The notes beneath the pieces were generated by a model, which saw nothing but the letters and a program-made list of their open reading frames with translations, searched no databases and was not told where the DNA came from. From NCBI RefSeq assembly GCF_050320075.1, contig NZ_CP190018.1: 64,000 nt of DNA. One strand, given 5' to 3'. How positions within the stretch are numbered: the first letter of the stretch is position 1; each line of letters begins with the position of its first letter. The translations under genes were made by a program, and so were the position numbers. This document shows, one piece after another, positions 639-64,000 of this stretch. This DNA is from Escherichia coli. GTDB lineage: Bacteria > Pseudomonadota > Gammaproteobacteria > Enterobacterales > Enterobacteriaceae.

Positions 639-3600
639 TTTCTTATTCCTCTCGATGTTCTCTGTTTCATTTTAGCTAAAATTTCACCCAAATCATCTAT
701 CCCTGCTGTTGCTGGCCCATCGGGTTTATTAATGTCTGGGAATAAATAGGGTTCTGCACAAGTATATCCTGGTGGTAATTGAGTTGTTGGCCAAGTTGTC
801 TGTGGCAGGTAATCACTTGCTGTCTTTGTCTCCATCCCTGGATACTGGGGATCATCCTGCGGCGTACAAGTCAGATTGGGTTTTACCCACTTCCTGCAAT
901 ACAGTGTGTAATCGTAAGGACTTAATGCTCTGAAGAATGTTTTGAAAACATTAGGCGCACTACTGGCCTGGTCAATAGGATATGGCAGTCTTAATTGTTT
1001 CGCTATGTCTGGCAACTTACTTGGATCGGGCGTAGGCGGTTTGTTGGGTCTCGCTCCATATCCGCCATTATTTAAGTGTCCATATTTAGATGCCAGTCCC
1101 ATTGAATCTATATACTGAACCGGATTTAACGGATACTGATAAAAATTCCATCCCCCCTTCAGTCCAATCGGATCCTGAGTGATATACCGCCCCTGCAGCG
1201 GGTCATAATAGCGGTGGCGGTTGTAATACAGGCCGGACTCCTCATCATACTGCTGACCCGGCAGGCGGATGAGCTGCTGCAGCTGGTGCGGGTTCTCTTC
1301 ATTCAGCAGGTTGCCCCATTCATCGTATTCTGCGCACCATTCTGTTGCCCCTTCCGTGCTGACAAGCGCCAGCGGCAGGCCGCGATGGTCGCAGTGGTAC
1401 AGGTGGATTTTTCGCGCCGGCGTGTACACCGGGTCCATCTGGTTTTGTATCTGCTCCACCGTCAGGCCGCACGATGCCAGCCAGCGGCGGCTTTCCTCAC
1501 TCACCCGGTCAGCCAGGATTTCACTTTCCAGCCGGTCGAGCATCTGCACCAGCACCGGCGGGAACACCACACTGCCACCGTCTTCGCCGCCGGACTGCTG
1601 AAGGGCATCCGCCAGGCTGCGGCGCTGCGTTTTCGCCAGCTCACCGGTGGCGGTTTCAACTCTGATGAGTGGCGTGAAGCTCCCCGGCTGATAAACCGTC
1701 TGGATGCGGGTTCTGTCGTTCTGTATCGTGGTCAGCCGGTCGCCGTCCCAGCCGTACCAGGTCACTTCCGGTTTCCGTGACAGCGACATCCAGCCCGTCA
1801 GGTCCCGTTCACGCCGCCATACCCGTTTTGCCACCCTGCGGCCCAGCGGGTCGTAAAGATAGCGACTTTCGACCAGCGGCTCTGCATATTGTGTCCGCGT
1901 GTAGTGCACCAGCCGGTGCCGGCTGTCGTAATGATACCGGTGAGTCCGCTCATCATCCGTGCGGATAACCCCTTCCGGGATGAGGTCGGTTTTCTCTGTC
2001 AGCCTGCCGTGACGGTCATACCGGTAAAGATAGTGCGCGTCACGGGCGATACGGTTATCCGGCCACATGCTGAGGGTGCTGTCCGGGTGCAGCTCCGGGT
2101 CGGGCAGGCGGTTGCCTGCCGGGTCCGTGGCATACGGGATGCGGATATCCAGGTTCGCTGCCGTGGTGTGGACGCCGGTCAGCCTGCCGGTGTCGCTGTA
2201 GCTGTAACTCCGGGTCTGGCGCGGGCTGCTGATGCGGATGAGTTCGCCGTTGTCGTTCCAGGTGTAATCGCGGTCATACTGCAGGCTGTTCAGGTGCTGG
2301 CTCTGTAACTGCCCGGCAGAGGTGTAAGCGGTGGTGAGTTCATAACGGCCGAAGCTGCGCAGCGTTTCCCGGTGCAGGCGGTCGCGGGTGTACTCCACCA
2401 GCGGTGTGTCGCCGAGTTTCATGCCTGACAGCCAGCCGCTGCCGTAGGTCAGCCATTCCACGGCGGGCAGGCTGTCCGGTATACAGCGGTTCGCCAGTCC
2501 CTGCGCGTTGTAAGCGTGTCTGGTTTCATGCTGCCAGAGCAGTGCTTCCGTCTGCGGGTGATGCACCGTCTGGCGCTCACCGGTCAGGCGGCCTTTCTCA
2601 TCATACCCGTAATGCACCGTCACCCGGTGGCCTTCGCTGAGATGGCTGATGCCTGTCAGCCAGCCGCGTTCGTCATACTGCCACTGCTCTGCCGGTTCAC
2701 CATTCACCGTTCGCTGTGTGATGCGGTCTGCTTCGTCATAGTGCCAGTGGGTGACCAGCCCCTCATCCTCGCTGCGGATAAGTTTGCCGGTCAGGTCGTG
2801 GTGATAACGCTGTGTGCGGCCGTCAAAGCCGGTTTCCTGTATCAGCCGGTCAAGTACATCGTAACGGAAGGTGGTGTGGCTGCCGTTTTCACTGGTCAGG
2901 CGGATGACCCGCCCGGCAGCATCGTATTCCATACTGCGCGTCAGACCGCCCTGCGTGGTACGAACGGGCTTTCCCCACGCATCGTACTGTGTCCCGTTTC
3001 TGCTGCCGTCCGGGGCAATGACGGCGGTCAGGTCACCGGCGGCGTTGTATTCATACCGCGTTTCATGGCCCTGCGTGTCTTTCACCGCAATTAACTGTCC
3101 ACGGCTGTCGTATGCGCGGTACTGACTCAGCCCTTCCTCGCGGTGCACCGCCGTCATCTGACCAAAACGGTCATGGTCATAACGGGTTACATAACCGGAA
3201 CAGTCAGTGACGGTCAGCAACTGACCGTAACGGCTCCATGTCATGGTTTTCCGGCTGCCGGTGGCATCCTCCGTTGCGCAGGGTAAGTCACTGTGTGGAT
3301 TATCATAACGGTAGCGGGTGATATCGCCGTTGTGTGCGGTTTCCTGAATCAGACGGCCGGATTCATCATATTCCCGGCGCAATTCCAGCCCGTCAGGCCC
3401 GGTGGCTGACGTTAACTGGCTGTGGTGGTTATAGTAAAATGCCGATGCCCTGCCATCCGGTGTGGTGATGCGCGTGATGAGTCCCGTCACCACATCCGGG
3501 CTGTACTCAGTCGTCCGGCCTGCGGCATCCGTCTGTGCCTTAAGCCTGCCCACCGCGTCAAACTGACTCTGCGTGACGCTGCCGTCCGCGTGTTCCTTTT

Positions 3601-4834
3601 TCACCACCCGCTTCAGCCCGCCTTCGCCCTGCGTGTGCAGCACTTCACGGCGGTCCAGACTGTCGGTGATGGTGATGCGGTCTTTCTCATACTGATACGT
3701 GTAGCTTAAGCCTGCCGGGTTTAGCTGCTCTGTCACCCGCCCGTCGCTGTCGTAACGGTAACGGATTTCTGGCCGGCCCGCGCGGTGGTGCGCCACCATC
3801 CGGCCCCGGTATTTATCATCGTAAGTAAAGCTGCGCACCTGTTTGCCACTGCGGTCATACACCGCCGCCAGTTCGCCGCGTGGCGTCCAGCCATAGCGCA
3901 CCAGCGGCGCGGCAGGTAAATTCTCCGGGTATTCCGGGTCGTGTGTCAGCCACACGGCAGACAGACGGATACCGTTGTCCCGGCCATATTCCGTGTAGTC
4001 CGGCAGGGTATCAGGAAAAGCGGACGGTTCCGTCCCGCCGGAAGAGGCCTGCTGCCGGGCCTCTTCTGCCCGCTGCGCCTGCGTGGTCAGTACCAGCCGG
4101 AAGTGACGCCCGGCACCATCCGTCACGCCGGTGATTTCGCCGCTGAATTCACCGCCAGCCTCACGGTGAAACGTCTGTGTGCGCCCGAAGCGGTCCACCA
4201 GCCCGGTCAGTACCCGGTACGGCGGCAGCGGCGCGGGCAGCACCTCATCCGCTTCCGGCACCCGCTCACACCAGCCGAGCAGCCACCACGGCCCCTGCGG
4301 ACTGTTTGTCGCCAGATAACGATGCGGACTTAAGCGGAGTTCTTCCGGCAGCGCCTGCCAGAGTGCGGTCAGCCGGTGACCTTCATCCAGTTTCAGGACA
4401 CCGCCACGCACCAGCCAGAGTGACTCGCTGCGGCTGTAACCGTCCTCACCGGGAAACAGGTGCTCAAAATACAGGCTCCTGCCGCCGTTATCACTGAGTA
4501 TCAGTGTGTTATCGCGCAGCTGTAGGCGGATATCCGCAGGCATTTTCCAGCCGGGGCCGAGGCTCCCCACCGGCGCGGGCGTTTTTGTCCGGTAACTGCT
4601 GTAGGTGCGGGAGAGGATGAACGGCAGCGGGCCGGGCAGGGCAAGGTCGGTTTCGCCGGGAAGGACCTTCGCGCCGAGCAGCGGATTGACCGGATGGCCG
4701 GACGTCACCCCGCCGGGGCACACCGAACAGGCCACGCCGGTGGGGGCACCAATACGTACCCCGGCAGAACCCTGAACAATGCTACCGCCATACTGCGTCA
4801 TGTCGCCCTGACGCGCCGCCGGTTTTCCGCTCAT
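635..4834 (-). CDS. rhsB: Rhs-family polymorphic toxin (PAAR-like N-terminus, YD-repeat core, variable C-terminal tip)
   Basis: 1399-aa ORF; N-terminal [26 protein letters not shown]-like motif; long GC-rich YD-repeat core; DPIGL core-end motif about 179 aa from C-terminus followed by AT-rich tip; locus next to nikR as for rhsB in K-12. Confidence 0.9.
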
Positions 4835-38121: not shown

Positions 38122-39864
38122 ATGATAAAACCGACGTTTTTACGCCGGGTAGCCATTGCTGCTCTGCTCTCAGGAAGTTGTTTTAGCGCCGCCGCCGCGC
38201 CTCCTCCGCCACCTGTTTCTTATGGCGTGGAGGAAGATGTCTTCCATCCGGTACGCGCGAAACAGGGGATGGTGGCGTCTGTAGATGCTACTGCCACTCA
38301 GGTGGGCGTGGATATCCTCAAGGAGGGCGGGAATGCCGTTGATGCTGCCGTGGCGGTGGGCTACGCGCTGGCGGTAACGCATCCGCAGGCGGGGAATCTG
38401 GGCGGCGGTGGTTTTATGCTGATCCGCTCGAAAAATGGCAATACCACCGCTATCGATTTCCGCGAAATGGCACCCGCCAAAGCGACCCGCGATATGTTCC
38501 TTGATGATCAGGGTAACCCGGACAGCAAAAAATCACTCACTTCGCATCTGGCCTCCGGTACGCCCGGTACGGTAGCAGGTTTCTCGCTGGCGTTGGATAA
38601 ATACGGCACCATGCCGTTGAACAAAGTGGTGCAACCGGCGTTTAAACTGGCACGCGATGGTTTTATCGTTAACGACGCGTTGGCTGACGATCTCAAAACC
38701 TACGGTAGCGAAGTGTTGCCGAATCACGAAAACAGCAAGGCTATCTTCTGGAAAGAGGGCGCGCCGCTGAAAAAGGGCGACAAGCTGGTGCAGGCGAACC
38801 TGGCAAAGAGCCTGGAGATGATTGCCGAAAACGGCCCGGACGAATTCTACAAAGGCACGATAGCGGAACAGATTGCCCAGGAGATGCAGAAAAACGGTGG
38901 CTTGATCACTAAAGAAGATTTAGCGGCGTATAAAGCGGTCGAACGTACACCGATTAGCGGCGATTATCGCGGGTATCAGGTTTACTCCATGCCACCGCCA
39001 TCTTCCGGCGGGATCCATATCGTACAAATCCTCAATATTCTGGAAAACTTCGATATGAAGAAATACGGCTTTGGCAGCGCCGACGCGATGCAAATCATGG
39101 CAGAAGCTGAGAAATATGCCTACGCCGACCGCTCGGAATATCTTGGCGACCCGGATTTTGTCAAAGTTCCGTGGCAGGCGCTGACCAATAAAGCCTATGC
39201 CAAATCTATTGCCGATCAAATCGATATCAATAAAGCGAAGCCATCCAGCGAAATTCGCCCCGGCAAGCTTGCGCCTTATGAGAGTAATCAAACTACCCAT
39301 TACTCAGTGGTGGATAAAGACGGCAACGCGGTAGCGGTGACCTATACGCTGAACACCACCTTCGGGACGGGCATTGTCGCGGGCGAGAGCGGTATTCTGC
39401 TTAATAACCAGATGGATGATTTCTCCGCCAAACCTGGCGTACCGAACGTTTACGGGCTGGTGGGTGGTGACGCCAACGCGGTCGGGCCGAATAAACGCCC
39501 GCTGTCGTCGATGTCCCCAACCATTGTGGTGAAAGACGGTAAAACCTGGTTAGTGACTGGTAGCCCAGGCGGTAGCCGGATCATCACTACCGTGCTGCAA
39601 ATGGTGGTGAACAGCATCGATTATGGTATGAATGTCGCCGAAGCGACCAATGCACCGCGTTTCCACCATCAGTGGTTGCCGGACGAGCTGCGTGTCGAAA
39701 AAGGGTTTAGCCCGGATACGCTCAAGCTGCTGGAAGCAAAAGGTCAGAAAGTGGCGCTGAAAGAGGCGATGGGTAGTACACAAAGCATTATGGTTGGGCC
39801 GGACGGCGAGTTGTACGGCGCATCCGATCCGCGCTCGGTGGATGATTTAACGGCGGGTTATTAA
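38122..39864 (+). CDS. ggt: Gamma-glutamyltranspeptidase
   Basis: Start at MIKPTFLRRVAIAALLSGSC (580 aa); autoprocessing-site context TTHYSVVD. Confidence 0.95.
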   Translation: MIKPTFLRRVAIAALLSGSCFSAAAAPPPPPVSYGVEEDVFHPVRAKQGMVASVDATATQVGVDILKEGGNAVDAAVAVGYALAVTHPQAGNLGGGGFMLIRSKNGNTTAIDFREMAPAKATRDMFLDDQGNPDSKKSLTSHLASGTPGTVAGFSLALDKYGTMPLNKVVQPAFKLARDGFIVNDALADDLKTYGSEVLPNHENSKAIFWKEGAPLKKGDKLVQANLAKSLEMIAENGPDEFYKGTIAEQIAQEMQKNGGLITKEDLAAYKAVERTPISGDYRGYQVYSMPPPSSGGIHIVQILNILENFDMKKYGFGSADAMQIMAEAEKYAYADRSEYLGDPDFVKVPWQALTNKAYAKSIADQIDINKAKPSSEIRPGKLAPYESNQTTHYSVVDKDGNAVAVTYTLNTTFGTGIVAGESGILLNNQMDDFSAKPGVPNVYGLVGGDANAVGPNKRPLSSMSPTIVVKDGKTWLVTGSPGGSRIITTVLQMVVNSIDYGMNVAEATNAPRFHHQWLPDELRVEKGFSPDTLKLLEAKGQKVALKEAMGSTQSIMVGPDGELYGASDPRSVDDLTAGY

Positions 39865-39867
39865 GGT

Positions 39868-39900
39868 TAGCGGCCCTCTTCGTGGGAAGAGGGCCGTATT
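39868..39900 (+). terminator. ggt terminator hairpin
   Basis: ggccctcttc gtgg gaagagggcc stem-loop after the ggt stop. Confidence 0.6.
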
Positions 39901-39929
39901 GTCAGGGCAAGCCGGGTAATGACTCCAAC

Positions 39930-40433
39930 TTACTGATAGTGTTTTATGTTCAGATAATGCCCGATGACTTTGTCATGCAGCTCCACCGATTTTGAGAACG
40001 ACAGTGACTTCCGTCCCAGCCTTGCCAGATGTTGTCTCAGATTCAGGTTATGTCGCTCAATGCGCTGAGTGTAACGCTTGCTGATTACGTGCAGCTTTCC
40101 CTTCAGGCGGGATTCATACAGCGGCCAGCCATCCGTCATCCATACCACGACCTCAAAGGCCGACAGCAGGCTCAGAAGACGCTCCAGTGTGGCCAGAGTG
40201 CGTTCACCGAAGACGTGCGCCACAACCGTCCTCCGTATCCTGTCATACGCGTAAAACAGCCAGCGCTGACGTGATTTAGCACCGACGTAGCCCCACTGTT
40301 CGTCCATTTCAGCGCAGACAATCACATCACTGCCCGGCTGTATGCGCGAGGTTACCGACTGCGGCCTGAGTTTTTTAAGTGACGTAAAATCGTGTTGAGG
40401 CCAACGCCCATAATGCGGGCGGTTGCCCGGCAT
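39930..40433 (-). CDS. insB: IS1 transposase InsB (expressed as InsAB' by -1 frameshift)
   Basis: 167-aa ORF, recognised as the IS1 InsB frame from its sequence and position within the element. Confidence 0.9.
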
Positions 40434-40627
40434 CCAACACCATTCATGGCCATATCAATGATTTTCTGGTGTGTACCGGGTTGAGAAGCGGTGTAAGTGA
40501 ACTGCAGTTGCCATGTTTTACGGCAGTGAGAGCAGAGATAGCGCTGATGTCCGGCAGTACTTTTACCGTTACGCACCACGCCTTCAGTAGCTGAGCAGGA
40601 GGGACAACTGATGGAGATGGAAGCCAC
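40352..40627 (-). CDS. insA: IS1 protein InsA
   Basis: 91 aa, Cys-rich zinc-finger N-terminus ([14 protein letters not shown]...CSHCRKTW). Confidence 0.9.
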
Positions 40628-40655
40628 GGGAGCACCTCAAAAACACCATCATACA

Positions 40656-41114
40656 CTAAATCAGTAAGTTGGCACCATTACCGGTATTTGCGATAAGATG
40701 TTGACAGAGGATAAATTCATAACTAACAGTTAATGTTTCTGTATCCAGTTGATTTTCAATGATCTGATGATGAATAGCCGATAAAAAAGCGCCTCTTAGT
40801 TGTATATAATAATACTTTCCCCATCTACCAAATCTATTTATTCGATAGAAGTCAAATTCCATAAATAATTGTTCATTATTGTTAATGGAATTAATAAATA
40901 ATGGAGTGCTTTTATCAATTAATTTACAAAATGTTATACCATGAAACTGTGAACCAAGCCCCGTATTAGTAATACTATTTAAGAATGAGAATGTAAATAT
41001 TTCATCCTCATGCCCGCTCTGCCAGCGATTACCTGTAGACTCAGAAGTCCCACAACCTGCGGAGATGCTTCCTTGTTGTTCTCCCGTTACTGTCAGGTAA
41101 ACAATATTACTCAT
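40656..41114 (-). pseudogene. Hcp-domain gene fragment (yhhZ-like Hcp-effector N-terminus) truncated by IS1; last ~9 codons and the stop lie in the IS1 end
   Basis: 152-aa ORF with Hcp hallmark KLIDKSTPLF; ORF runs into the IS1 terminal repeat (40656-40682). Confidence 0.7.
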
Positions 41115-41349
41115 CCATGAAAAGTCCTTTTATGGCATGCTATTTTATCAATGGCACTATTATGCTTGTTAATTGTTATTTATTTACTCCAGGAAATTGT
41201 AGGCGTATATATTAAAAAATAAAATATTACACTTTAGGACGTAATTATGAGGTAAATCTTATATATTTATTGGGAAAATAAATACATTAAAAGAAGGTAT
41301 GCCGATTTTGAATGACACCCTTTTTCCATCTCAGAAAAAGGGCACTATC

Positions 41350-41838
41350 TTACTTCACCCGCGCCATATAATACGCATCGACATATTCACCATTACGTAA
41401 TGCGTACTTCTTGCCAGTCCCTTCAATCTCAAATCCAAATTTTTTATAGACTTTAATTGCTGGCGCGTTATCGATGAACACCGTTAGCTCAATACGATCT
41501 ACCCGCAACCAGTTGTCGCACATTTCAATCATCTCTCGCATCAGGGCGCTGGCGACGCCGCGATTCTTCCAACGGGAGTCGACACAAATACCAAAATCTG
41601 CAACATGACTGCGGCGTGGGCGCTGTTGCACGTCAATGGTGAGATGGCCCACGACGTCTCCATCAATACAGGCGACGAGTTGCTTGATGCCGGGACGATC
41701 GGCGAGTCGCTCCTGCCACATATGATCGGAAGGATGAGGCACCTGTAGCGTGTTGCAATACACCTCCGGCTGGGCGTGAATCTGCCTGATGGCCTCGTAA
41801 TCGCGCGTTTCAGCATGGCGTATCACTATCTCACTCAT
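41350..41838 (-). CDS. yhhY: GNAT-family N-acetyltransferase YhhY
   Basis: Start at MSEIVIRHAETRDYEAIRQIH (162 aa); acetyl-CoA motif RWKNRGVASALM. Confidence 0.85.
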   Translation of the reverse strand: MSEIVIRHAETRDYEAIRQIHAQPEVYCNTLQVPHPSDHMWQERLADRPGIKQLVACIDGDVVGHLTIDVQQRPRRSHVADFGICVDSRWKNRGVASALMREMIEMCDNWLRVDRIELTVFIDNAPAIKVYKKFGFEIEGTGKKYALRNGEYVDAYYMARVK

Positions 41839-41926
41839 TCCTTTGTCCTCTTTGGGGTAAATGTCCCTTTCAACATCATTGACTTTCAAATGCGAGTCAA
41901 ATGCATTTTTTTTGCAAAAAGTGTTG

Positions 41927-41957
41927 GACAAGTGCGAATGAGAATGATTATTATTGT
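41927..41957 (+). promoter_or_regulatory. Fur box / promoter of ryhB
   Basis: aatgagaatgattattattgtc resembles the Fur consensus gataatgataatcattatc, immediately upstream of RyhB. Confidence 0.6.
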
Positions 41958-41960
41958 CTT

Positions 41961-42050
41961 GCGATCAGGAAGACCCTCGCGGAGAACCTGAAAGCACGAC
42001 ATTGCTCACATTGCTTCCAGTATTACTTAGCCAGCCGGGTGCTGGCTTTT
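41961..42050 (+). ncRNA. ryhB: RyhB small RNA (Fur-repressed iron-sparing sRNA)
   Basis: gcgatcaggaagaccctcgcggagaacctgaaagcacgacattgctcacattgcttccagtattacttagccagccgggtgctggcttttttttt matches RyhB as I recall it, including terminator hairpin and T-run; between yhhY and yhhX as in K-12. Confidence 0.9.
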
Positions 42051-47396: not shown

Positions 47397-49493
47397 ATGG
47401 AAAAGCACGGAGCTGAATTGCTTTTACAGCGGATGTTAGGAAATACCACCGCTACTTTCAGGGAAGGGCAATGGGAAGCCATAGATGCAGTGGTTAATCA
47501 GCGGCGAAAACTGCTGGTTGTACAGCGCACCGGCTGGGGGAAAAGTGCCGTGTACTTCATCGCCAGTAAAATCTTCCGCGATCGCGGCGCTGGCCCGACA
47601 ATTATCATCTCTCCTTTGCTTGCCCTGATGCGTAACCAGGTTGCCGCCGCTGAACGGTTAGGTATTACGGCTGAAACGTTGAATTCTACAAACAGGGAAG
47701 AATGGCAGCGCATTAGCGATAAGTTGCTGCAAGGTGAGGTCGATTGCTTGCTGGTTTCCCCGGAACGTTTGGCAAACCAGGACTTTATCGAAACGGTTTT
47801 ATATCCTATAGCCGATCGTATTGGCTTGCTTGTGGTCGACGAGGCGCACTGCATCTCTGATTGGGGCCACGATTTTCGCCCGGATTACCGACGTATATTA
47901 GATATTTTGCGCCAACTGCCTGCGAATACCCCTGTTCTGGGTACAACCGCGACAGCGAATAACCGTGTTGTTGAGGATATCCGTCAGCAATTGGGTGACA
48001 TTGTGATTCAGCGTGGAACGCTGGCTCGCGAAAGTTTGGCGCTTGATGCCTTAGTCTTAGGAGAACAGTCATCCCGTCTGGCATGGTTAGCAACGGTTAT
48101 CCCTCAGTTTTCCAAATCGGGAATTGTTTATACCCTGACGACTCGCGATGCTGAACTTGTCGCCGAGTGGTTAAGGAAAAATGGTATCAGTGCATTTGCT
48201 TACTACAGCGGCGTGACTTGTGAAGGCGCGGAAGATTCTAATACTGCCAGGGAATATCTGGAGCAGGCACTGCTGGCAAATAAAATCAAAGTGCTGGTCG
48301 CGACGACGGCATTAGGTATGGGGTTTGATAAACCTGATTTAGGTTTCGTCATTCATTATCAGATGCCGGGGTCTATTGTCGGTTACTACCAACAGGTGGG
48401 GCGTGCCGGGCGTGCTATAGATTCCGCAGTTGGCATATTGCTTTGTGGTGGTGAAGACCGCGCTATTCATCAATTCTTCCGTGAAAGCGCCTTTCCTGCG
48501 GAGGCGCAAATTCATGAAATACTCAACGTACTTAGCGAGAATGACGGTCTTACCCTACGAGGCATTGAACAACGGACGAATCTTCGTTATGGGCAAATAG
48601 AAAAAGCACTGAAATTATTGGTAGCGGAAAATCCATCGCCTGTGGTGTATACCGAGAAATTATGGCGCAGAACTATCGTCAGTTTTTCTCCTGATCATGA
48701 ACGAATTAACCATTTGATGAATCAGAGAAAAAGTGAACTGGCAGACGTTGAAAGCTATATCACGACCAAGGAGTGCAAAATGCAATTTCTGCGCCGTGCA
48801 CTCGATGAGCCAAGTGCCGAACGTTGTGGTAAATGTAGCAGTTGTCTTCAGCATCCGTTATTGTCGCCCGACATTGATAGCGGCTTACTCCATGCGGCAA
48901 ATTTATTTATTAAACACGCTGACCTGCCGTTAAATCTCAATAAACAGGTGGCAGCTGGGGCTTTTACGCAATACGGATTTAAAGGGAACTTGCCTGCGGG
49001 TTTACAAGGATCTACGGGGCGAATCCTTTCTCGTTGGGGAGATTCCGGGTGGGGAAAGCAGGTAGCACAGGAGAAAAAAACGGGGCGCTTAAGTGATGAG
49101 CTGGTAGAAGCATGTGCGGAAATGGTTCGCCAACGCTGGAATCCGCATCCTGAACCAACCTGGGTATGCTGCGTTCCTTCATTAAGGCACCTCGACCTGG
49201 TTCCTGATTTTGCCCGGCGACTGGCGGCGAAACTTGGCTTACCTTTTATTGATGCCATTGAAAAAGTCGTGGACAATCCACCGCAGAAAATGCAGCAAAA
49301 CCGTTTTCACCAGTGTCAAAATCTCGACGGGGCGTTTGTGATTACCCCTCCTTTGATGCCAGGTCCGGCGTTGCTGGTTGACGATATCGTGGATTCTGCA
49401 TGGACGCTGACAGTTCTGACAGCACTGTTACGCCAGGCAGGTTGCCCGACGGTTTATCCTCTTGCCCTTGCTTCTACCTCGGTAAAAAATTGA
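47397..49493 (+). CDS. RecQ-family superfamily-2 helicase fused to a C-terminal ComF-type phosphoribosyltransferase-like domain (PsyrT/RqlH-like candidate toxin)
   Basis: 698 aa. RecQ motifs: FREGQWEAIDAV, Walker A TGWGKS, DEAH box VVDEAHCISDWGHDFRPDY, YYQQVGRAGR, Zn-binding CKMQFLRR...CGKCSSC. C-terminus: QNRFHQCQNLDGAF...ALLVDDIVDSAWTLT matching ComF/PRTase PRPP-loop pattern. Good RBS aggag 8 bp upstream. Confidence 0.8.
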   Translation: MEKHGAELLLQRMLGNTTATFREGQWEAIDAVVNQRRKLLVVQRTGWGKSAVYFIASKIFRDRGAGPTIIISPLLALMRNQVAAAERLGITAETLNSTNREEWQRISDKLLQGEVDCLLVSPERLANQDFIETVLYPIADRIGLLVVDEAHCISDWGHDFRPDYRRILDILRQLPANTPVLGTTATANNRVVEDIRQQLGDIVIQRGTLARESLALDALVLGEQSSRLAWLATVIPQFSKSGIVYTLTTRDAELVAEWLRKNGISAFAYYSGVTCEGAEDSNTAREYLEQALLANKIKVLVATTALGMGFDKPDLGFVIHYQMPGSIVGYYQQVGRAGRAIDSAVGILLCGGEDRAIHQFFRESAFPAEAQIHEILNVLSENDGLTLRGIEQRTNLRYGQIEKALKLLVAENPSPVVYTEKLWRRTIVSFSPDHERINHLMNQRKSELADVESYITTKECKMQFLRRALDEPSAERCGKCSSCLQHPLLSPDIDSGLLHAANLFIKHADLPLNLNKQVAAGAFTQYGFKGNLPAGLQGSTGRILSRWGDSGWGKQVAQEKKTGRLSDELVEACAEMVRQRWNPHPEPTWVCCVPSLRHLDLVPDFARRLAAKLGLPFIDAIEKVVDNPPQKMQQNRFHQCQNLDGAFVITPPLMPGPALLVDDIVDSAWTLTVLTALLRQAGCPTVYPLALASTSVKN

Positions 49494-50695
49494 TGAATCT
49501 TTCAGCCAATGCACAAGCGACTCTCCTGCTAACCAGCGATTTTTCTCGCGCGGCGGCGAGTGAGTATAAACCTCTTAGTAATAGTGAATGGGGGAAGTTT
49601 GCATTATGGCTGAAGCACCAACGTATCAGTCCCGCCGATCTTCTGGTGCCGCAACCGCAAGAGAAACTTACAGGCTGGAGCGATCCGCGTATTTCTCAGG
49701 AGCGTATTCTTGGCTTGCTGGCGCGTGGTCATAGTCTGGCGTTGGCGGTAGATAAGTGGCAACGCGCCGGTTTATGGATCTTAACCCGCGGAGATGCCGA
49801 TTATCCCGTTCGCTTGAAAAACCGATTGCGAACGGATGCACCTCCCGTTTTATTTGGCTGCGGGAATAAAGCATTACTGCAAGCGGAAGGTATGGCGATT
49901 GTTGGCTCGCGAGATGCTCCGACTGCCGATTTGCGCTATACCCAACAACTGGCAGCGAAACTGGCCCAACAGGGGATTTGCGTTATCTCTGGTGGTGCGC
50001 GAGGTATTGATGAATGTGCAATAGCGTCGGCGCTGGAGGCCGGAGGAACTGCCGTTGGCGTATTAGCTGATAGCTTGTTAAAAACGAGCACGTTAGTGAA
50101 ATGGCGTGAAGGGCTTATAGCAGGCAACCTGGTGTTGATTTCACCGTTTTACCCAGAGGTACGTTTCACCGTCGGCAATGCGATGGCGCGGAATAAATAT
50201 ATTTATTGCCTTGCTGAAAGCGCAATGGTTGTACGTGCGGGAATGACCGGTGGAACGATAACCGGAGCGATGGAGGCGTTAAAACATCAGTGGCTGCCTG
50301 TTCTGGTTAAACCAAATCAGGATGTGCAATCAGCCAATTCACGATTAGTAGAAAATGGGGCGTCATGGAGTGCTGAACAGGCTGAGAATGTGACGATCAG
50401 ACTGCCAGACGTTCCTGGGCTGATGTATGACAGAGCACTCCGTAACGCTCAACCAGAATTGTTTTCGCTGCACGAAGATGACGCAAATTACGCAGTGATG
50501 CCCTCGCATACCCCTGTCGATTTTTATCAACTTTTTGTGGCGGAACTGGCGATCCTTGCAAAGGAATCGATAAGTATTGAAAGGCTGGCGTCTTGTACTG
50601 GTTTAACCATCGAACAAATTAGTATGTGGCTGAACCGCGCAGAAGAAGAGGGAAGGGTTATCCGATTGGGCGAAGGTCATTATCAGTTCAGGTAA
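49493..50695 (+). CDS. DprA (Smf)-like Rossmann-fold protein with C-terminal winged-helix (PsyrA/RqlI-like candidate antitoxin)
   Basis: 400 aa from the ATG overlapping the upstream stop (TGATG). DprA motifs: IVGSRDAP...ICVISGGARGIDECAIASALEAGGTAVGVLADSL...NAMARNKYIY...VVRAGMTGGT. Confidence 0.75.
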   Translation: MNLSANAQATLLLTSDFSRAAASEYKPLSNSEWGKFALWLKHQRISPADLLVPQPQEKLTGWSDPRISQERILGLLARGHSLALAVDKWQRAGLWILTRGDADYPVRLKNRLRTDAPPVLFGCGNKALLQAEGMAIVGSRDAPTADLRYTQQLAAKLAQQGICVISGGARGIDECAIASALEAGGTAVGVLADSLLKTSTLVKWREGLIAGNLVLISPFYPEVRFTVGNAMARNKYIYCLAESAMVVRAGMTGGTITGAMEALKHQWLPVLVKPNQDVQSANSRLVENGASWSAEQAENVTIRLPDVPGLMYDRALRNAQPELFSLHEDDANYAVMPSHTPVDFYQLFVAELAILAKESISIERLASCTGLTIEQISMWLNRAEEEGRVIRLGEGHYQFR

Positions 50696-62386: not shown

Positions 62387-63904
62387 ATGGAAAGAATAAT
62401 GCAAAACGGAAAATGGATTTTGACCTCGCTGGTAATGACTTTTTTTGGCATCCCCATACTGGCGCAATTTTTGGCAGCGGTTGTTGCCATGCTGGGGGCC
62501 GGGCTTGCCGCTATTCTTGAGTTTTGCAATTTACTCTTTACACCAACAATTTATCTTCTACTCAACGTCTTTATGCTGACGCTGGGCGCATTACTGCTAT
62601 TTTTCTCTGGGCGAGTGTGGGCGGGCGATAGCGCACCAGAAAACAGAGAAATAGCCGCCTGGCGACAATGTCTTTTTTTAGTTCCCGCTTTATTAACCCT
62701 GGTTGGCTGGATAATCACGCTACATCTGGCAGATTATCAATTTCGCCAGATGGGAGCCGGTTGGTTGGCAAACCTTATGCTTCCCTGGTTGGGCGTTTTT
62801 ACAGTCTCATTCGTCGGTGGTGAGTACTGGTGGATAGTCATTATTCCCGTTGGCGCGCATATCAGTTTTTCACTGGGATACGGCTGGCCGACCAGACACC
62901 CTTTAACCGGCACCTCCGGTCTACGTTGCCGTAATTTACTTCTGTTCATTCTTCTCTTACTGGGTATTGTCGCTGGTTATCAGGCTTATTTATATAAACA
63001 GCTTAATCCCGGCGTCGGTGTGCGTGAAAATATTGATACCTGGGCCTGGCGACCCGATAAACTTAATAATCAACTGACGCCACTGCGTGGTAAACCACAA
63101 ATTCAATTTACGCAAAACTGGCCGCGACTCGATGGCGCTACGGCGGCGTACCCCATTTATGCCTCTGCATTTTATGCATTAAGTGTAATACCAGAGGATT
63201 TTCACGTTTGGGATTATCTGGATAACTCTCGTACGCAAGAAGCATATAACAAAATCGTTAACGGTGATGCCGATATTATTTTCGTGGCGCAACCTTCCGA
63301 TGGGCAAAAAAAACGCGCTGAGAAATCGGGCGTCACTTTGCTGTACACGCCATTTGCCCGTGAAGCGTTTGTTTTCATCGTCAATGCGGATAATCCGGTT
63401 AATTCCCTGACTGAACAACAAGTGCGTGACATTTTTAGTGGCGCAATTACCAACTGGCGCACGGTTGGCGGTAACGATCAGGAGATCCAGACCTGGCAAC
63501 GCCCGGAAGACTCTGGCAGCCAGACAGTGATGCAATCGCAGGTCATGAAAAATGTCCGCATGATCTCGCCGCAGGAAACCGAAGTGGCAAGCATGATGGA
63601 GGGAATGATTAAAGTCGTTGCCGAATACCGTAATACAAACAACGCAATAGGCTACACCTTCCGCTATTACGCAACACAAATGAATGCCGATAAAAATATA
63701 AAACTGCTAGCGATTAACGGTATTGCACCGACTGCAGAAAATATTCGCAATGGCAAATATCCCTATGTCGTCGATGCATTTATGGTAACGCGGGACAATA
63801 TGACGTCAGAAACACAAAAACTGGTTGAATGGTTTTTAACGCCGCAGGGGCAGAGTCTGGTGGAAGATGTGGGCTATGTGCCGCTGTATCCAACAATGAA
63901 ATAA
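62387..63904 (+). CDS. Membrane protein with N-terminal multi-TM domain and C-terminal PstS-like periplasmic binding (PBP-like) domain; intact yzgL-like gene
   Basis: 505-aa ORF; hydrophobic N-terminal ~200 aa then soluble domain; occupies the position of the short yzgL pseudogene downstream of glgP in K-12 (my recollection). Confidence 0.6.
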   Translation: MERIMQNGKWILTSLVMTFFGIPILAQFLAAVVAMLGAGLAAILEFCNLLFTPTIYLLLNVFMLTLGALLLFFSGRVWAGDSAPENREIAAWRQCLFLVPALLTLVGWIITLHLADYQFRQMGAGWLANLMLPWLGVFTVSFVGGEYWWIVIIPVGAHISFSLGYGWPTRHPLTGTSGLRCRNLLLFILLLLGIVAGYQAYLYKQLNPGVGVRENIDTWAWRPDKLNNQLTPLRGKPQIQFTQNWPRLDGATAAYPIYASAFYALSVIPEDFHVWDYLDNSRTQEAYNKIVNGDADIIFVAQPSDGQKKRAEKSGVTLLYTPFAREAFVFIVNADNPVNSLTEQQVRDIFSGAITNWRTVGGNDQEIQTWQRPEDSGSQTVMQSQVMKNVRMISPQETEVASMMEGMIKVVAEYRNTNNAIGYTFRYYATQMNADKNIKLLAINGIAPTAENIRNGKYPYVVDAFMVTRDNMTSETQKLVEWFLTPQGQSLVEDVGYVPLYPTMK

Positions 63905-63929
63905 CGCTCGAGAGAAAGGAATCAGCGCA

Positions 63930-64000
63930 ATGAATAAATTCACCTGTGTTTTACTATTAGGTACGGCGCTACTGGCGGGATGTGTCGACCGGGAAGGGTA
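63930..64000 (+). CDS. 5' end of a lipoprotein gene (partial, runs off the window)
   Basis: atgaataaattcacctgtgttttactattaggtacggcgctactggcgggatgtgtc encodes MNKFTCVLLLGTALLAGCV with lipobox LLAGC; only 23 codons visible. Confidence 0.3.
   Translation, partial: MNKFTCVLLLGTALLAGCVDREG

Follow-up and report, generated by a model that had tools for sequence, protein, structure and literature searches.

In a 64,000-nt stretch of the Escherichia coli contig NZ_CP190018.1 (hereafter the window), a copy of IS1 lies between ggt and a shortened Hcp-type gene, and the sequences on its two sides do not match. How did the element come to lie there, and what was lost from the locus? A preliminary description had proposed an adjacent deletion rather than a simple insertion. 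The features on which our analysis draws are as follows.

38122–39864, plus strand: ggt (gamma-glutamyltransferase), intact (PGAP on the identical YZLc1-3 sequence; ORF list)
39871–39896, no strand: G+C-rich hairpin with 11-nt arms and a 4-nt loop (inverted repeat I5; sequence)
39902–39914, minus strand: yrhB remnant, the last 13 nt (stop codon and ~3 codons), corresponding to L004 2988–3000, the annotated yrhB 3′ end
39915–40682, minus strand: intact IS1, 768 bp (sequence; repeat finder, pair I1)
40352–40627, minus strand: insA, 91 aa (ORF list and sequence)
40370–40376, minus strand: A6C frameshift motif AAAAAAC, −1 shift to InsAB′
40656–41114, minus strand: chimeric ORF of 152 aa, made of 144 yhhZ codons and 8 from the IS1 IRL, then a stop
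40683–41114, minus strand: yhhZ′ (tssD pseudogene), native codons 1–144, the Hcp domain of an Hcp-HNH effector (strain 144 identity, TIGR03344, PDB, PGAP)
40944, no strand: G>A, synonymous, yhhZ′ codon 57, lineage-private
41292, no strand: G>A, 178 bp upstream of the yhhZ′ start codon, lineage-private
41350–41838, minus strand: yhhY (N-acetyltransferase), intact, right neighbour of yhhZ′ (PGAP on identical sequence)

The IS1 element and its flanks

The element is bounded by terminal inverted repeats of 23 nt (IRR, 39915–39937; IRL, 40660–40682) that are 87% complementary. Both its size of ~768 bp and the starts of the repeats (GGTAATG/GGTGATG) are typical of the IS1 family, and the preliminary description was right in calling it complete. 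insA and insB′ lie on the minus strand and are joined via a −1 shift at the A6C motif, yielding an InsAB′ of 232 aa that ends at 39930; in YZLc1-3, PGAP annotates an “IS1 family transposase, programmed frameshift” (WP_223216367.1). Over its 768 bp the element shows 100% identity to an IS1 of strain U1, which rules out a chance resemblance. Sequence identity to the IS1E of K-12 is only 93%. No other IS1 copy is present in the window, and the host is rich in IS1, with 22 matching places in the YZLc1-3 genome.

The 9 bp immediately outside the element differ, as had been stated: GGCAAGCCG (39906–39914) on the ggt side and GGTATTTGC (40683–40691) on the yhhZ′ side. Matching direct repeats, which the preliminary description had named as the finding that would speak against it, were looked for around IS1 in a repeat search with 7-nt seeds, and no direct repeats of 8–9 bp bracketing the element were found. 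The window copy lacks the flanking 8–9-bp duplication of the IS1 family because of the associated deletion described below. At other sites of the yhhY–ggt locus, the same or related IS1 elements are flanked by 9-bp duplications; the duplication belongs to the insertion event and is no trait of the element itself. We infer that GGCAAGCCG at its present position is probably the retained copy of the original target-site duplication.

The left neighbour of IS1 is the 3′ end of ggt, whose stop codon is at 39862–39864. The hairpin at 39871–39896, lying between the convergent ggt and yrhB, is presumably a bidirectional terminator that was retained; a stricter terminator scan, in which a T-run was required, did not call it. 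IS1 had been described as directly abutting the ggt terminator. It does lie beside it, but starts 18 bp past the hairpin and 50 bp past the ggt stop codon, within the last codons of yrhB, of which nothing except 39902–39914 is left in the window.

On the right, residues 1–144 of the chimeric ORF are identical to residues 1–144 of a 392-aa protein of the IS-free strain 144, and they are followed by an IS1-encoded tail of eight residues (GNGANLLI). The truncation had been noted before, with a count of ~143 native codons that the identity to strain 144 corrects to 144. The stop codon (40656–40658) is 25–27 nt into IS1; the ORF does end inside the element, as had been claimed, but just past the 23-nt repeat rather than within it. 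The Hcp domain was recognised by TIGR03344 at residues 1–146 (E = 2e-34, above the curated cut-off), and PDB Hcp chains match residues 4–145 of the 152-aa query. The fragment aligns to positions 4–161 of a 171-aa Hcp, whose C-terminal tail is absent. The 144 retained residues span essentially the whole Hcp domain. PGAP already flags yhhZ as a pseudogene in YZLc1-3. A stand-alone Hcp/TssD would have ~160–170 aa and be intact in IS-free genomes; in those genomes the gene encodes 392 aa, which disposes of the possibility, raised earlier as an objection, that the 152-aa ORF is itself a full-length Hcp. The locus is not part of a T6SS cluster: around it lie ggt, yhhY, yhhX and yhhW, and no T6SS genes occur in the annotated stretch.

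Comparison with IS-free relatives

IS1 is absent from more than 55 genomes that differ from the window by at most 2 bases in their 6-kb flanks; their span is 7,959–7,960 bp, compared with 6,768 bp. The gene order in these IS-free clonal relatives is ggt-yrhB-yrhD′-yrhA-yhhZ(392 aa)-yhhY. Exactly 1,960 bp are absent from the window, comprising yrhB, yrhD′, yrhA and yhhZ codons 145–392, the C-terminal 248 codons of the gene. The breakpoints on L004 are 3000/4961, with L004 3001–4960 replaced by IS1. The loss is contiguous and starts exactly at the end of an intact IS when set against the IS-free reference, as in an adjacent deletion. Among close relatives, none was found that lacks the 1,960 bp and also lacks IS1. 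As shown by the IS-free relatives, the ancestor had their gene order from ggt to yhhY, without IS1.

The lost islet has a G+C content of 28–37% and its flanks 50–56%; IS1 prefers A+T-rich DNA. The K-12 yhhY–ggt interval contains yhhZ (PGAP tssD, 392 aa), yrhA, yrhB and the small yrhD, which bears out the earlier account of full-length yhhZ, yrhA and yrhB and adds yrhD to it. Missing from that account was the interruption of K-12 yrhA itself by IS1E (also PMC12428005).

The preliminary description had suspected that this strain lost the C-terminal toxin domain together with neighbouring genes, and the 1,960-bp difference agrees with this. The full-length relative matched Pfam T6SS_HCP, and a weak Pfam HNH match was obtained at residues 322–343 of the intact 392-aa protein (E = 0.013). 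C-terminal fragments of yhhZ are named “HNH endonuclease” by PGAP, and YhhZ has been classified as a His-Me finger nuclease (PMC5714182). A prediction of codons 145–392 as a linker and an HNH/colicin-DNase-like nuclease half is supported. The adjacent yrhA belongs to the YrhA family (NF038335) and is presumed to be the immunity gene for YhhZ.

The same allele was found in 2 of 5,426 complete E. coli genomes, YZLc1-3 and Ec-U3, which come from different hosts and records (one chicken isolate from China, one human isolate). The window is identical to both over 22.6 kb; relative to the IS-free clone, it has 1 SNP over 22.6 kb and 0 differences over 24.9 kb on the other side. The allele at 40944 is seen only in the two IS1-deletion genomes among 3,680 carrying the 61-mer, and that at 41292 only in the same two among 1,097. 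The comparisons lend no support to import of the allele from another lineage by recombination: neither SNP allele was seen in any further complete genome, and in all other respects the flanking sequence matches the clone.

Taken together, these comparisons show that one sub-lineage within a highly clonal group of E. coli has undergone an IS1-associated deletion of 1,960 bp. Events of this kind are ordinary, well-understood IS-driven gene loss, with many separate occurrences at this locus.

IS1 at the same locus in other lineages and the route to the deletion

In SCU-112, a simple IS1B insertion has GGCAAGCCG on both sides, at the same nucleotide as the window junction. As this simple insertion carries the 9-bp duplication, GGCAAGCCG is a proven IS1 target. 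EC291 has an IS1A (93% identical to the window IS1) at the same GGCAAGCCG junction, with a longer deletion whose other end lies in yhhY, and there are at least three independent cases of IS1 using the site. A further simple insertion, in MS 21-1, lies 24–32 bp further on. Others are in yrhA: that of U1 has the duplication GATTATTAA and the orientation of the window IS1, and the IS1E of K-12 has the 9-bp duplication TTTAATGTC. IS1 copies without duplication were found at L004 3015, 3016, 3030, 3049 and ~3055, with other ends at 4203, ~5546, 5649, 5674 and 5755. Across lineages, the ggt-side ends fall within ~55 bp of the terminator and the other ends are scattered over 1.5 kb. One lineage shows a nested series in which the left junction at 3016 is fixed and the right end is at 4203 (TUM9868 and four others) or 5755 (E89). 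An orientation bias of IS1 beside ggt was rejected, with 24 genomes in the window orientation and 26 in the opposite one. A literature search on IS1 variability of this locus returned only papers on K-12 IS1E.

Given a deletion, the likeliest path is insertion of IS1 at GGCAAGCCG followed by one rightward adjacent deletion, and we favour it with modest confidence. A simple insertion in the last yrhB codons would have made the 9-bp duplication. The insA-proximal end (IRL) would then have attacked a yhhZ site 1.96 kb away by intramolecular replicative transposition, and the intervening DNA would have been excised with the second GGCAAGCCG copy, leaving a single IS1 whose flanks differ. Transposition of IS1 within the chromosome is replicative (PMC12428005, which for replicative deletions by IS1 cites Turlan and Chandler, 1995). 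Missing duplications are usually caused by adjacent deletions or IS–IS recombination, and in the long-term evolution experiment 14 of 14 IS-plus-deletion events arose at a site where the IS had inserted beforehand (PMC11708052). From the fixed ggt-side junction in TUM9868 and E89 and from the clustering of ends on that side, the ggt side is expected to be the resident end; the clustering could partly reflect selection against loss of ggt. The order of events is taken from other lineages, because no genome of the clone was found to combine an IS1 at GGCAAGCCG with an undeleted right side: junction searches of the 5,426 complete genomes returned each junction only from YZLc1-3 and Ec-U3, and no intermediates from the same clone. 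The earlier claim of an adjacent deletion rather than a simple insertion thus holds for the deletion and the missing duplication, whereas the mechanism is the best-supported one and not a proven one.

Three other histories give the same final sequence. Two direct IS1 copies, one at GGCAAGCCG and one in yhhZ with a GGTATTTGC duplication, may have undergone a RecA-dependent crossover that deleted the interval and one copy. We regard this as a serious possibility that is nonetheless improbable. Double direct copies occur at the locus in WEM25 (yrhA and yhhZ) and CFSAN064036, simple insertions in yhhZ are found in at least four lineages, the host is IS1-rich with its 22 matching places, and recombination between IS copies is known to leave elements without duplications (PMC11708052). 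However, this course needs three events (two rare insertions and a crossover) against two for the adjacent deletion, and neither single insertion, nor both, was found in this clone. Alternatively, IS1 could have arrived first at yhhZ codon 144, with IRR then attacking GGCAAGCCG 1.96 kb leftwards. Independent simple insertions in yhhZ do exist, GGCAAGCCG as a preferred target could serve intramolecularly, and the product would be identical in sequence. We consider this order rather unlikely, since it is the ggt-side ends that cluster (~55 bp) while the others scatter (1.5 kb), and the constant junction in TUM9868 and E89 is on the ggt side.

The third history, which we think very unlikely, departs from a U1-like ancestor with IS1 in yrhA (GATTATTAA) that suffered deletions of 1,047 bp to the left and 921 bp to the right. 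U1 belongs to the same clone (1 SNP over 22.6 kb, identical over 24.9 kb) and its 100% identical IS1 sits, in the window's orientation, within the segment now missing from the window. That identity says nothing if the IS1 copies of the clone all share one sequence, three events are needed, and the leftward deletion would have stopped exactly at a simple-insertion site, a coincidence although a hot spot would allow it. Neither private SNP (40944, 41292) is present in U1, whose distance from the window is no smaller than that of IS-free members; with the extra event needed, U1 is not favoured as the direct ancestor. A collapsed or misjoined IS1 repeat can be practically dismissed. IS1 is multicopy and repeats are typical sites of misassembly, but the junctions and flanks are identical in two independently sequenced complete genomes, the junctions are continuous with unique sequence, and the two private SNPs co-occur with the allele.

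Implications and comparison with known systems

Taken alone, the window allele is of little weight: it is one more strain-specific IS1 scar, in a gene that RefSeq already flags as a pseudogene. The locus is a natural, repeatedly used IS1 target and offers a data set of 5,426 genomes for target choice and deletion spectra. The presumed immunity gene yrhA went together with the toxin domain. Should YhhZ act as a T6SS effector in the intact clonal relatives, the sub-lineage would be both disarmed and kin-sensitive. A speculative reading, which we believe to be improbable, is convergent IS1-driven erosion of the A+T-rich yrhB–yhhZ islet across E. coli, proceeding from a hot spot at the G+C/A+T boundary past the ggt terminator and maybe selected rather than neutral. 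Within the erosion reading, it is possible that an orphan Hcp-nuclease/immunity pair is being purged, or that truncation at the Hcp/linker border gives an Hcp subunit that lacks the toxin but can still be used. Local mutagenesis, from the IS1 event or from read-through transcription, might be reflected in the two private C>T changes next to the junction.

A promoter scan gave no consensus sigma-70 promoter upstream of yhhZ′. It matched only a promoter-like site in the IRL of IS1 and, within the ORF, a second site on the plus strand, a total below that of shuffled sequences. The case for expression of the remnant is accordingly taken from work on K-12 (PMC12428005). The toxin-less Hcp-domain ORF would be kept under the native yhhZ upstream region, and the 152-aa ORF would run directly into the co-oriented insA. 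Read-through from the yhhZ promoters increases the activity of IS1E in K-12 (PMC12428005). As the yhhZ upstream region reads into insA in the window as well, its IS1 may be a comparatively active donor.

Hcp-ETs consist of Hcp with a C-terminal extension toxin, Hcp-ET1 being an Hcp-HNH DNase (Ma et al., 2017; reviewed in PMC6730261). By architecture, the parent yhhZ can be likened to Hcp-ET1, with an N-terminal Hcp domain, a C-terminal HNH-type region and a small yrhA downstream in the position of an immunity gene. The window gene has the N-terminal Hcp (TssD) domain, whereas the C-terminal HNH/His-Me finger toxin is gone and the downstream immunity gene, represented by yrhA in relatives, is deleted. 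With only the carrier domain kept and codons 145–392 deleted, yhhZ′ is best described as a remnant and not as a member of the Hcp-ETs. The yhhZ locus also differs in being an orphan outside any T6SS cluster.

The deletion itself resembles IS1-mediated adjacent deletions, which Reif and Saedler reportedly described in 1975, in the intact IS1 at the junction, the lost duplication and the contiguous loss from the exact IS1 end; related strains carry nested deletions that start from one constant IS1 end. It differs in that the event is reconstructed by comparative genomics and the resident-IS1 intermediate was not found in the lineage. The long-term evolution experiment shows the same succession of insertion, deletion and extended deletion with no duplication left, although with IS150 there and IS1 in natural isolates here (PMC11708052). 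The closest case by position is yrhA::IS1E of K-12 (b3443–b3445 region), where IS1 disrupts the same toxin–immunity islet in the same orientation, with insA lying downstream of yhhZ and reading in its direction. In contrast to the window, K-12 has a simple insertion and keeps full-length yhhZ, yrhB and yrhD.

IS1 between ggt and the truncated yhhZ

A single IS1 copy is present within the 64-kb window, between ggt and yhhZ', the truncated remnant of yhhZ (tssD in the PGAP annotation). The features below were obtained by reading the sequence of 39000-42000 together with a repeat scan.

39864: 3' end of ggt, the left neighbour of IS1
39871-39896: hairpin with an 11-bp stem, between ggt and IS1
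39906-39914: left 9-bp flank, GGCAAGCCG
39915-40682, coding on minus strand: IS1, 768 bp
40352-40627, minus strand: insA, 91 aa
40370-40376, minus-strand reading of IS1: frameshift motif AAAAAAC
40683-40691: right 9-bp flank, GGTATTTGC
40656-41114, minus strand: yhhZ', 152-aa ORF of 144 Hcp-family codons and 8 codons from the IS1 end

The element begins 18 bp beyond the hairpin, and the repeat scan shows 23-nt inverted repeats at its two ends (GGTAATGACTCCAACTTACTGAT and ATCAGTAAGTTGGCACCATTACC). Its insA and insB' frames fuse via a -1 shift to give a 232-aa InsAB'. The IS1 is intact, in agreement with the preliminary description of a complete 768-bp element with both inverted repeats. That description also held that the 9-bp flanks differ, and indeed no direct repeats match across the two ends (GGCAAGCCG vs GGTATTTGC). 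Therefore, there is no target-site duplication. The truncation of an Hcp-family ORF by IS1 stands as well, although the native part comprises 144 codons where the description gave about 143. Such corrections are minor, and the description was right in all material respects.

The deleted interval and the carriers of the allele

A 6-kb query from which IS1 had been removed was searched against 5,426 complete E. coli genomes. More than 55 genomes match it within two bases, with matches spanning 7,959–7,960 bp, and these carry ggt, yrhB, a yrhD remnant, yrhA, a 392-aa yhhZ and yhhY with no IS1. Breakpoints were mapped on the IS-free clonal relative strain 144 (locus L004; other L numbers are loci of compared genomes). 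The IS1 takes the place of L004 3001-4960, a segment of 1,960 bp with 33% G+C. Lost from the window are yrhB save its final 13 nt, the yrhD remnant, yrhA and yhhZ codons 145-392. This gap bears out the proposed loss of the C-terminal toxin domain and neighbouring genes. The K-12 locus has the same gene set, including the yhhZ, yrhA and yrhB named in the preliminary description; its yrhA is itself interrupted by IS1E (PMC12428005), with the 9-bp duplication TTTAATGTC. Reading the 152-aa ORF as a stand-alone Hcp gene was rejected, as IS-free relatives encode 392 aa.

Both IS1 junctions co-occur in only two of the 5,426 genomes, YZLc1-3 (chicken, China) and Ec-U3 (human). In YZLc1-3, PGAP already flags the gene as a tssD pseudogene truncated at the C terminus. 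Across 22.6 kb the window matches both genomes at every base and differs by one SNP over that distance from a large clone including strains 144 and U1; on the other side of the locus, window and clone are identical across 24.9 kb. On this evidence, the IS1-deletion allele is real, heritable and recent. An assembly artefact was rejected, given the identical allele in two genomes and the near-identical clone flanks.

Over the ∼51 kb compared, three SNPs separate the window from its clone, two of which fall no more than 610 bp from the IS1 junction:

40944: synonymous C>T (sense strand of yhhZ) in codon 57 of yhhZ'
41292: C>T (sense strand of yhhZ), 178 bp before the yhhZ' start codon

Both alleles are confined to the two IS1-deletion genomes. 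The probability of two of three SNPs falling inside this 670-bp unit by chance is about 5e-4, a post-hoc estimate from very few events, for which reason we record the clustering as a note and not as a finding. Local mutagenesis, relaxed constraint or chance are possible explanations.

Two further features of the window were recorded.

47397-50695: two-gene insert between gntU and yhgN, encoding a 698-aa RecQ-family helicase (PADLOC PsyrT match, 1,064 bits) and a 431-aa DprA-like protein (PsyrA match, E = 5e-200)
62396-64000: two neighbouring genes, annotated as encoding PstS-family phosphate-binding proteins, immediately downstream of glgP, the first giving no PADLOC match

Judged by these matches, the insert is a known PsyrTA defence/toxin-antitoxin pair, which is not known to occupy this position in the K-12 gene order.

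IS1 events beside ggt and the origin of the deletion

The left junction is shared with other genomes. SCU-112 carries a simple IS1B insertion at the same nucleotide, in opposite orientation and with GGCAAGCCG on both sides (L019 3612-3620 and 4389-4397). In EC291, an IS1A only 93% identical to the window IS1 uses the same junction (L005 3612-3620), its other end lying within yhhY. IS1 has used GGCAAGCCG for a junction on at least three independent occasions, which involve three IS1 variants and both orientations; in one of them a simple insertion is flanked by it as a 9-bp duplication. Its use as a target by IS1 is therefore demonstrated. In MS 21-1, a simple IS1 insertion lies 24–32 bp farther along. 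In many lineages (L007-L014, L020-L022), IS1 copies lacking a duplication are anchored 15–55 bp beyond the ggt hairpin, and the deletions end at different points, in the yhhZ stop region in some and inside yhhY in others.

Ends of IS1 copies without duplication (L004 coordinates; ggt-side end, other end)
ET846: 3015, about 5546
group of ∼17 genomes including TUM9868: 3016, 4203
E89: 3016, 5755
YPE10: 3030, 5674
PCN061: 3049, 5649
A30: about 3055, within yhhY

The lineage with its end at 3016 is defined by a shared ggt allele and a shared IS1 transposase allele. Six of its loci were examined (L009-L014: TUM9868, ETEC1730, E89, PSJ-23, 1217KP and 2018-02-2CC). The left junction is constant, whereas the deletion extends to 4203 in five of them and to 5755 in E89, a nested deletion series from a fixed IS1 end. 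No orientation bias of IS1 near ggt was found (24 vs 26 genomes).

The end sequence by itself cannot tell adjacent deletion, i.e., intramolecular replicative transposition by a resident IS1, from recombination between two IS1 copies. Left ends within about 55 bp, right ends spread over 1.5 kb and simple insertions at the cluster are what a resident IS1 beside ggt, repeatedly deleting rightwards, would produce. IS1 transposition within the chromosome is replicative (PMC12428005), IS1 replicative deletions are classical (Turlan and Chandler, 1995, as cited there), and in the long-term evolution experiment all IS-plus-deletion events were preceded by insertion at the same site (PMC11708052). Because of this junction pattern, mode of transposition and precedent, we lean towards a scheme in which IS1 would have inserted at GGCAAGCCG and a single rightward deletion of 1,960 bp would then have followed from the resident copy. 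The adjacent deletion put forward at the outset is likewise supported by the ggt-side insertions and the nested series.

Recombination between two direct IS1 copies is less probable; such double states do exist in WEM25 and CFSAN064036, which have two direct copies apiece in the islet between the ggt hairpin and yhhY. It is unlikely that an IS1 anchored in yhhZ attacked the GGCAAGCCG hot spot leftwards. Descent via two deletions from a yrhA::IS1 state as in U1 seems very improbable: the U1 element is identical to that of the window and sits inside the lost interval (duplication GATTATTAA), but U1 is no nearer to the window than IS-free clone members.

An accessory islet and its Hcp remnant

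The islet has 28–37% G+C vs 50–56% in its flanks. The 1,960-bp segment is found at ≥80% coverage in 3,760 of the 5,426 genomes and is wholly absent from 1,352; hence the Hcp-HNH module is accessory. At least one genome, VE-V11-M (L023 2988-3870), has an IS-free ggt-yrhB-yhhY order without yrhD, yrhA and yhhZ. IS1 has hit yrhA at three different sites (K-12, L003; U1, L001; WEM25) and yhhZ at four (SW071611, ES2, 2018-11-3CC and WEM25), with one site between yhhZ and yhhY in CFSAN064036; the independent simple insertions in yrhA and yhhZ each carry a 9-bp duplication (L001, L003, L015-L018). The window event is one among a family of similar independent islet erosions.

Full-length YhhZ matches TIGR03344 (Hcp/TssD) at residues 1-147 and Pfam T6SS_HCP at 26-139, with a weak HNH match at 322-343; PGAP labels C-terminal pieces of this gene "HNH endonuclease." The remnant matches TIGR03344 over residues 1-146 and aligns with an Hcp crystal structure of 171 aa over positions 4-161 of the latter; it therefore retains nearly the entire Hcp carrier domain, whereas the toxin is wholly lost. 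Since the region upstream of yhhZ' is unaltered except for one private SNP, the cell could produce the Hcp-only protein of 152 aa; a consensus scan of this region found no strong promoter. The native end of yhhZ' lies 55 bp from the start of the co-directional insA (window 40628-41114). As read-through from the yhhZ promoters increases IS1E transcription and transposition in K-12 (PMC12428005), the window IS1 may by analogy be a relatively active donor.

We conclude that this is an ordinary IS1-associated deletion, which pseudogenised an orphan Hcp-HNH effector gene and removed its neighbours. The process is well known and has had the same outcome repeatedly at this locus, to which the window adds a new case. 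The yrhA product belongs to the YrhA family (NF038335), and by its position yrhA is a putative immunity gene; loss of yrhA would remove immunity, should YhhZ be active as an effector in the clonal relatives. YhhZ has been assigned to the His-Me finger nuclease group among Hcp-fused T6SS effectors (PMC5714182). The parent gene shares the architecture of the Hcp-ET effectors, among which Hcp-ET1, a DNase of the Hcp-HNH type, has an immunity gene downstream (PMC6730261), in having an Hcp domain, an HNH region and yrhA in the immunity position.
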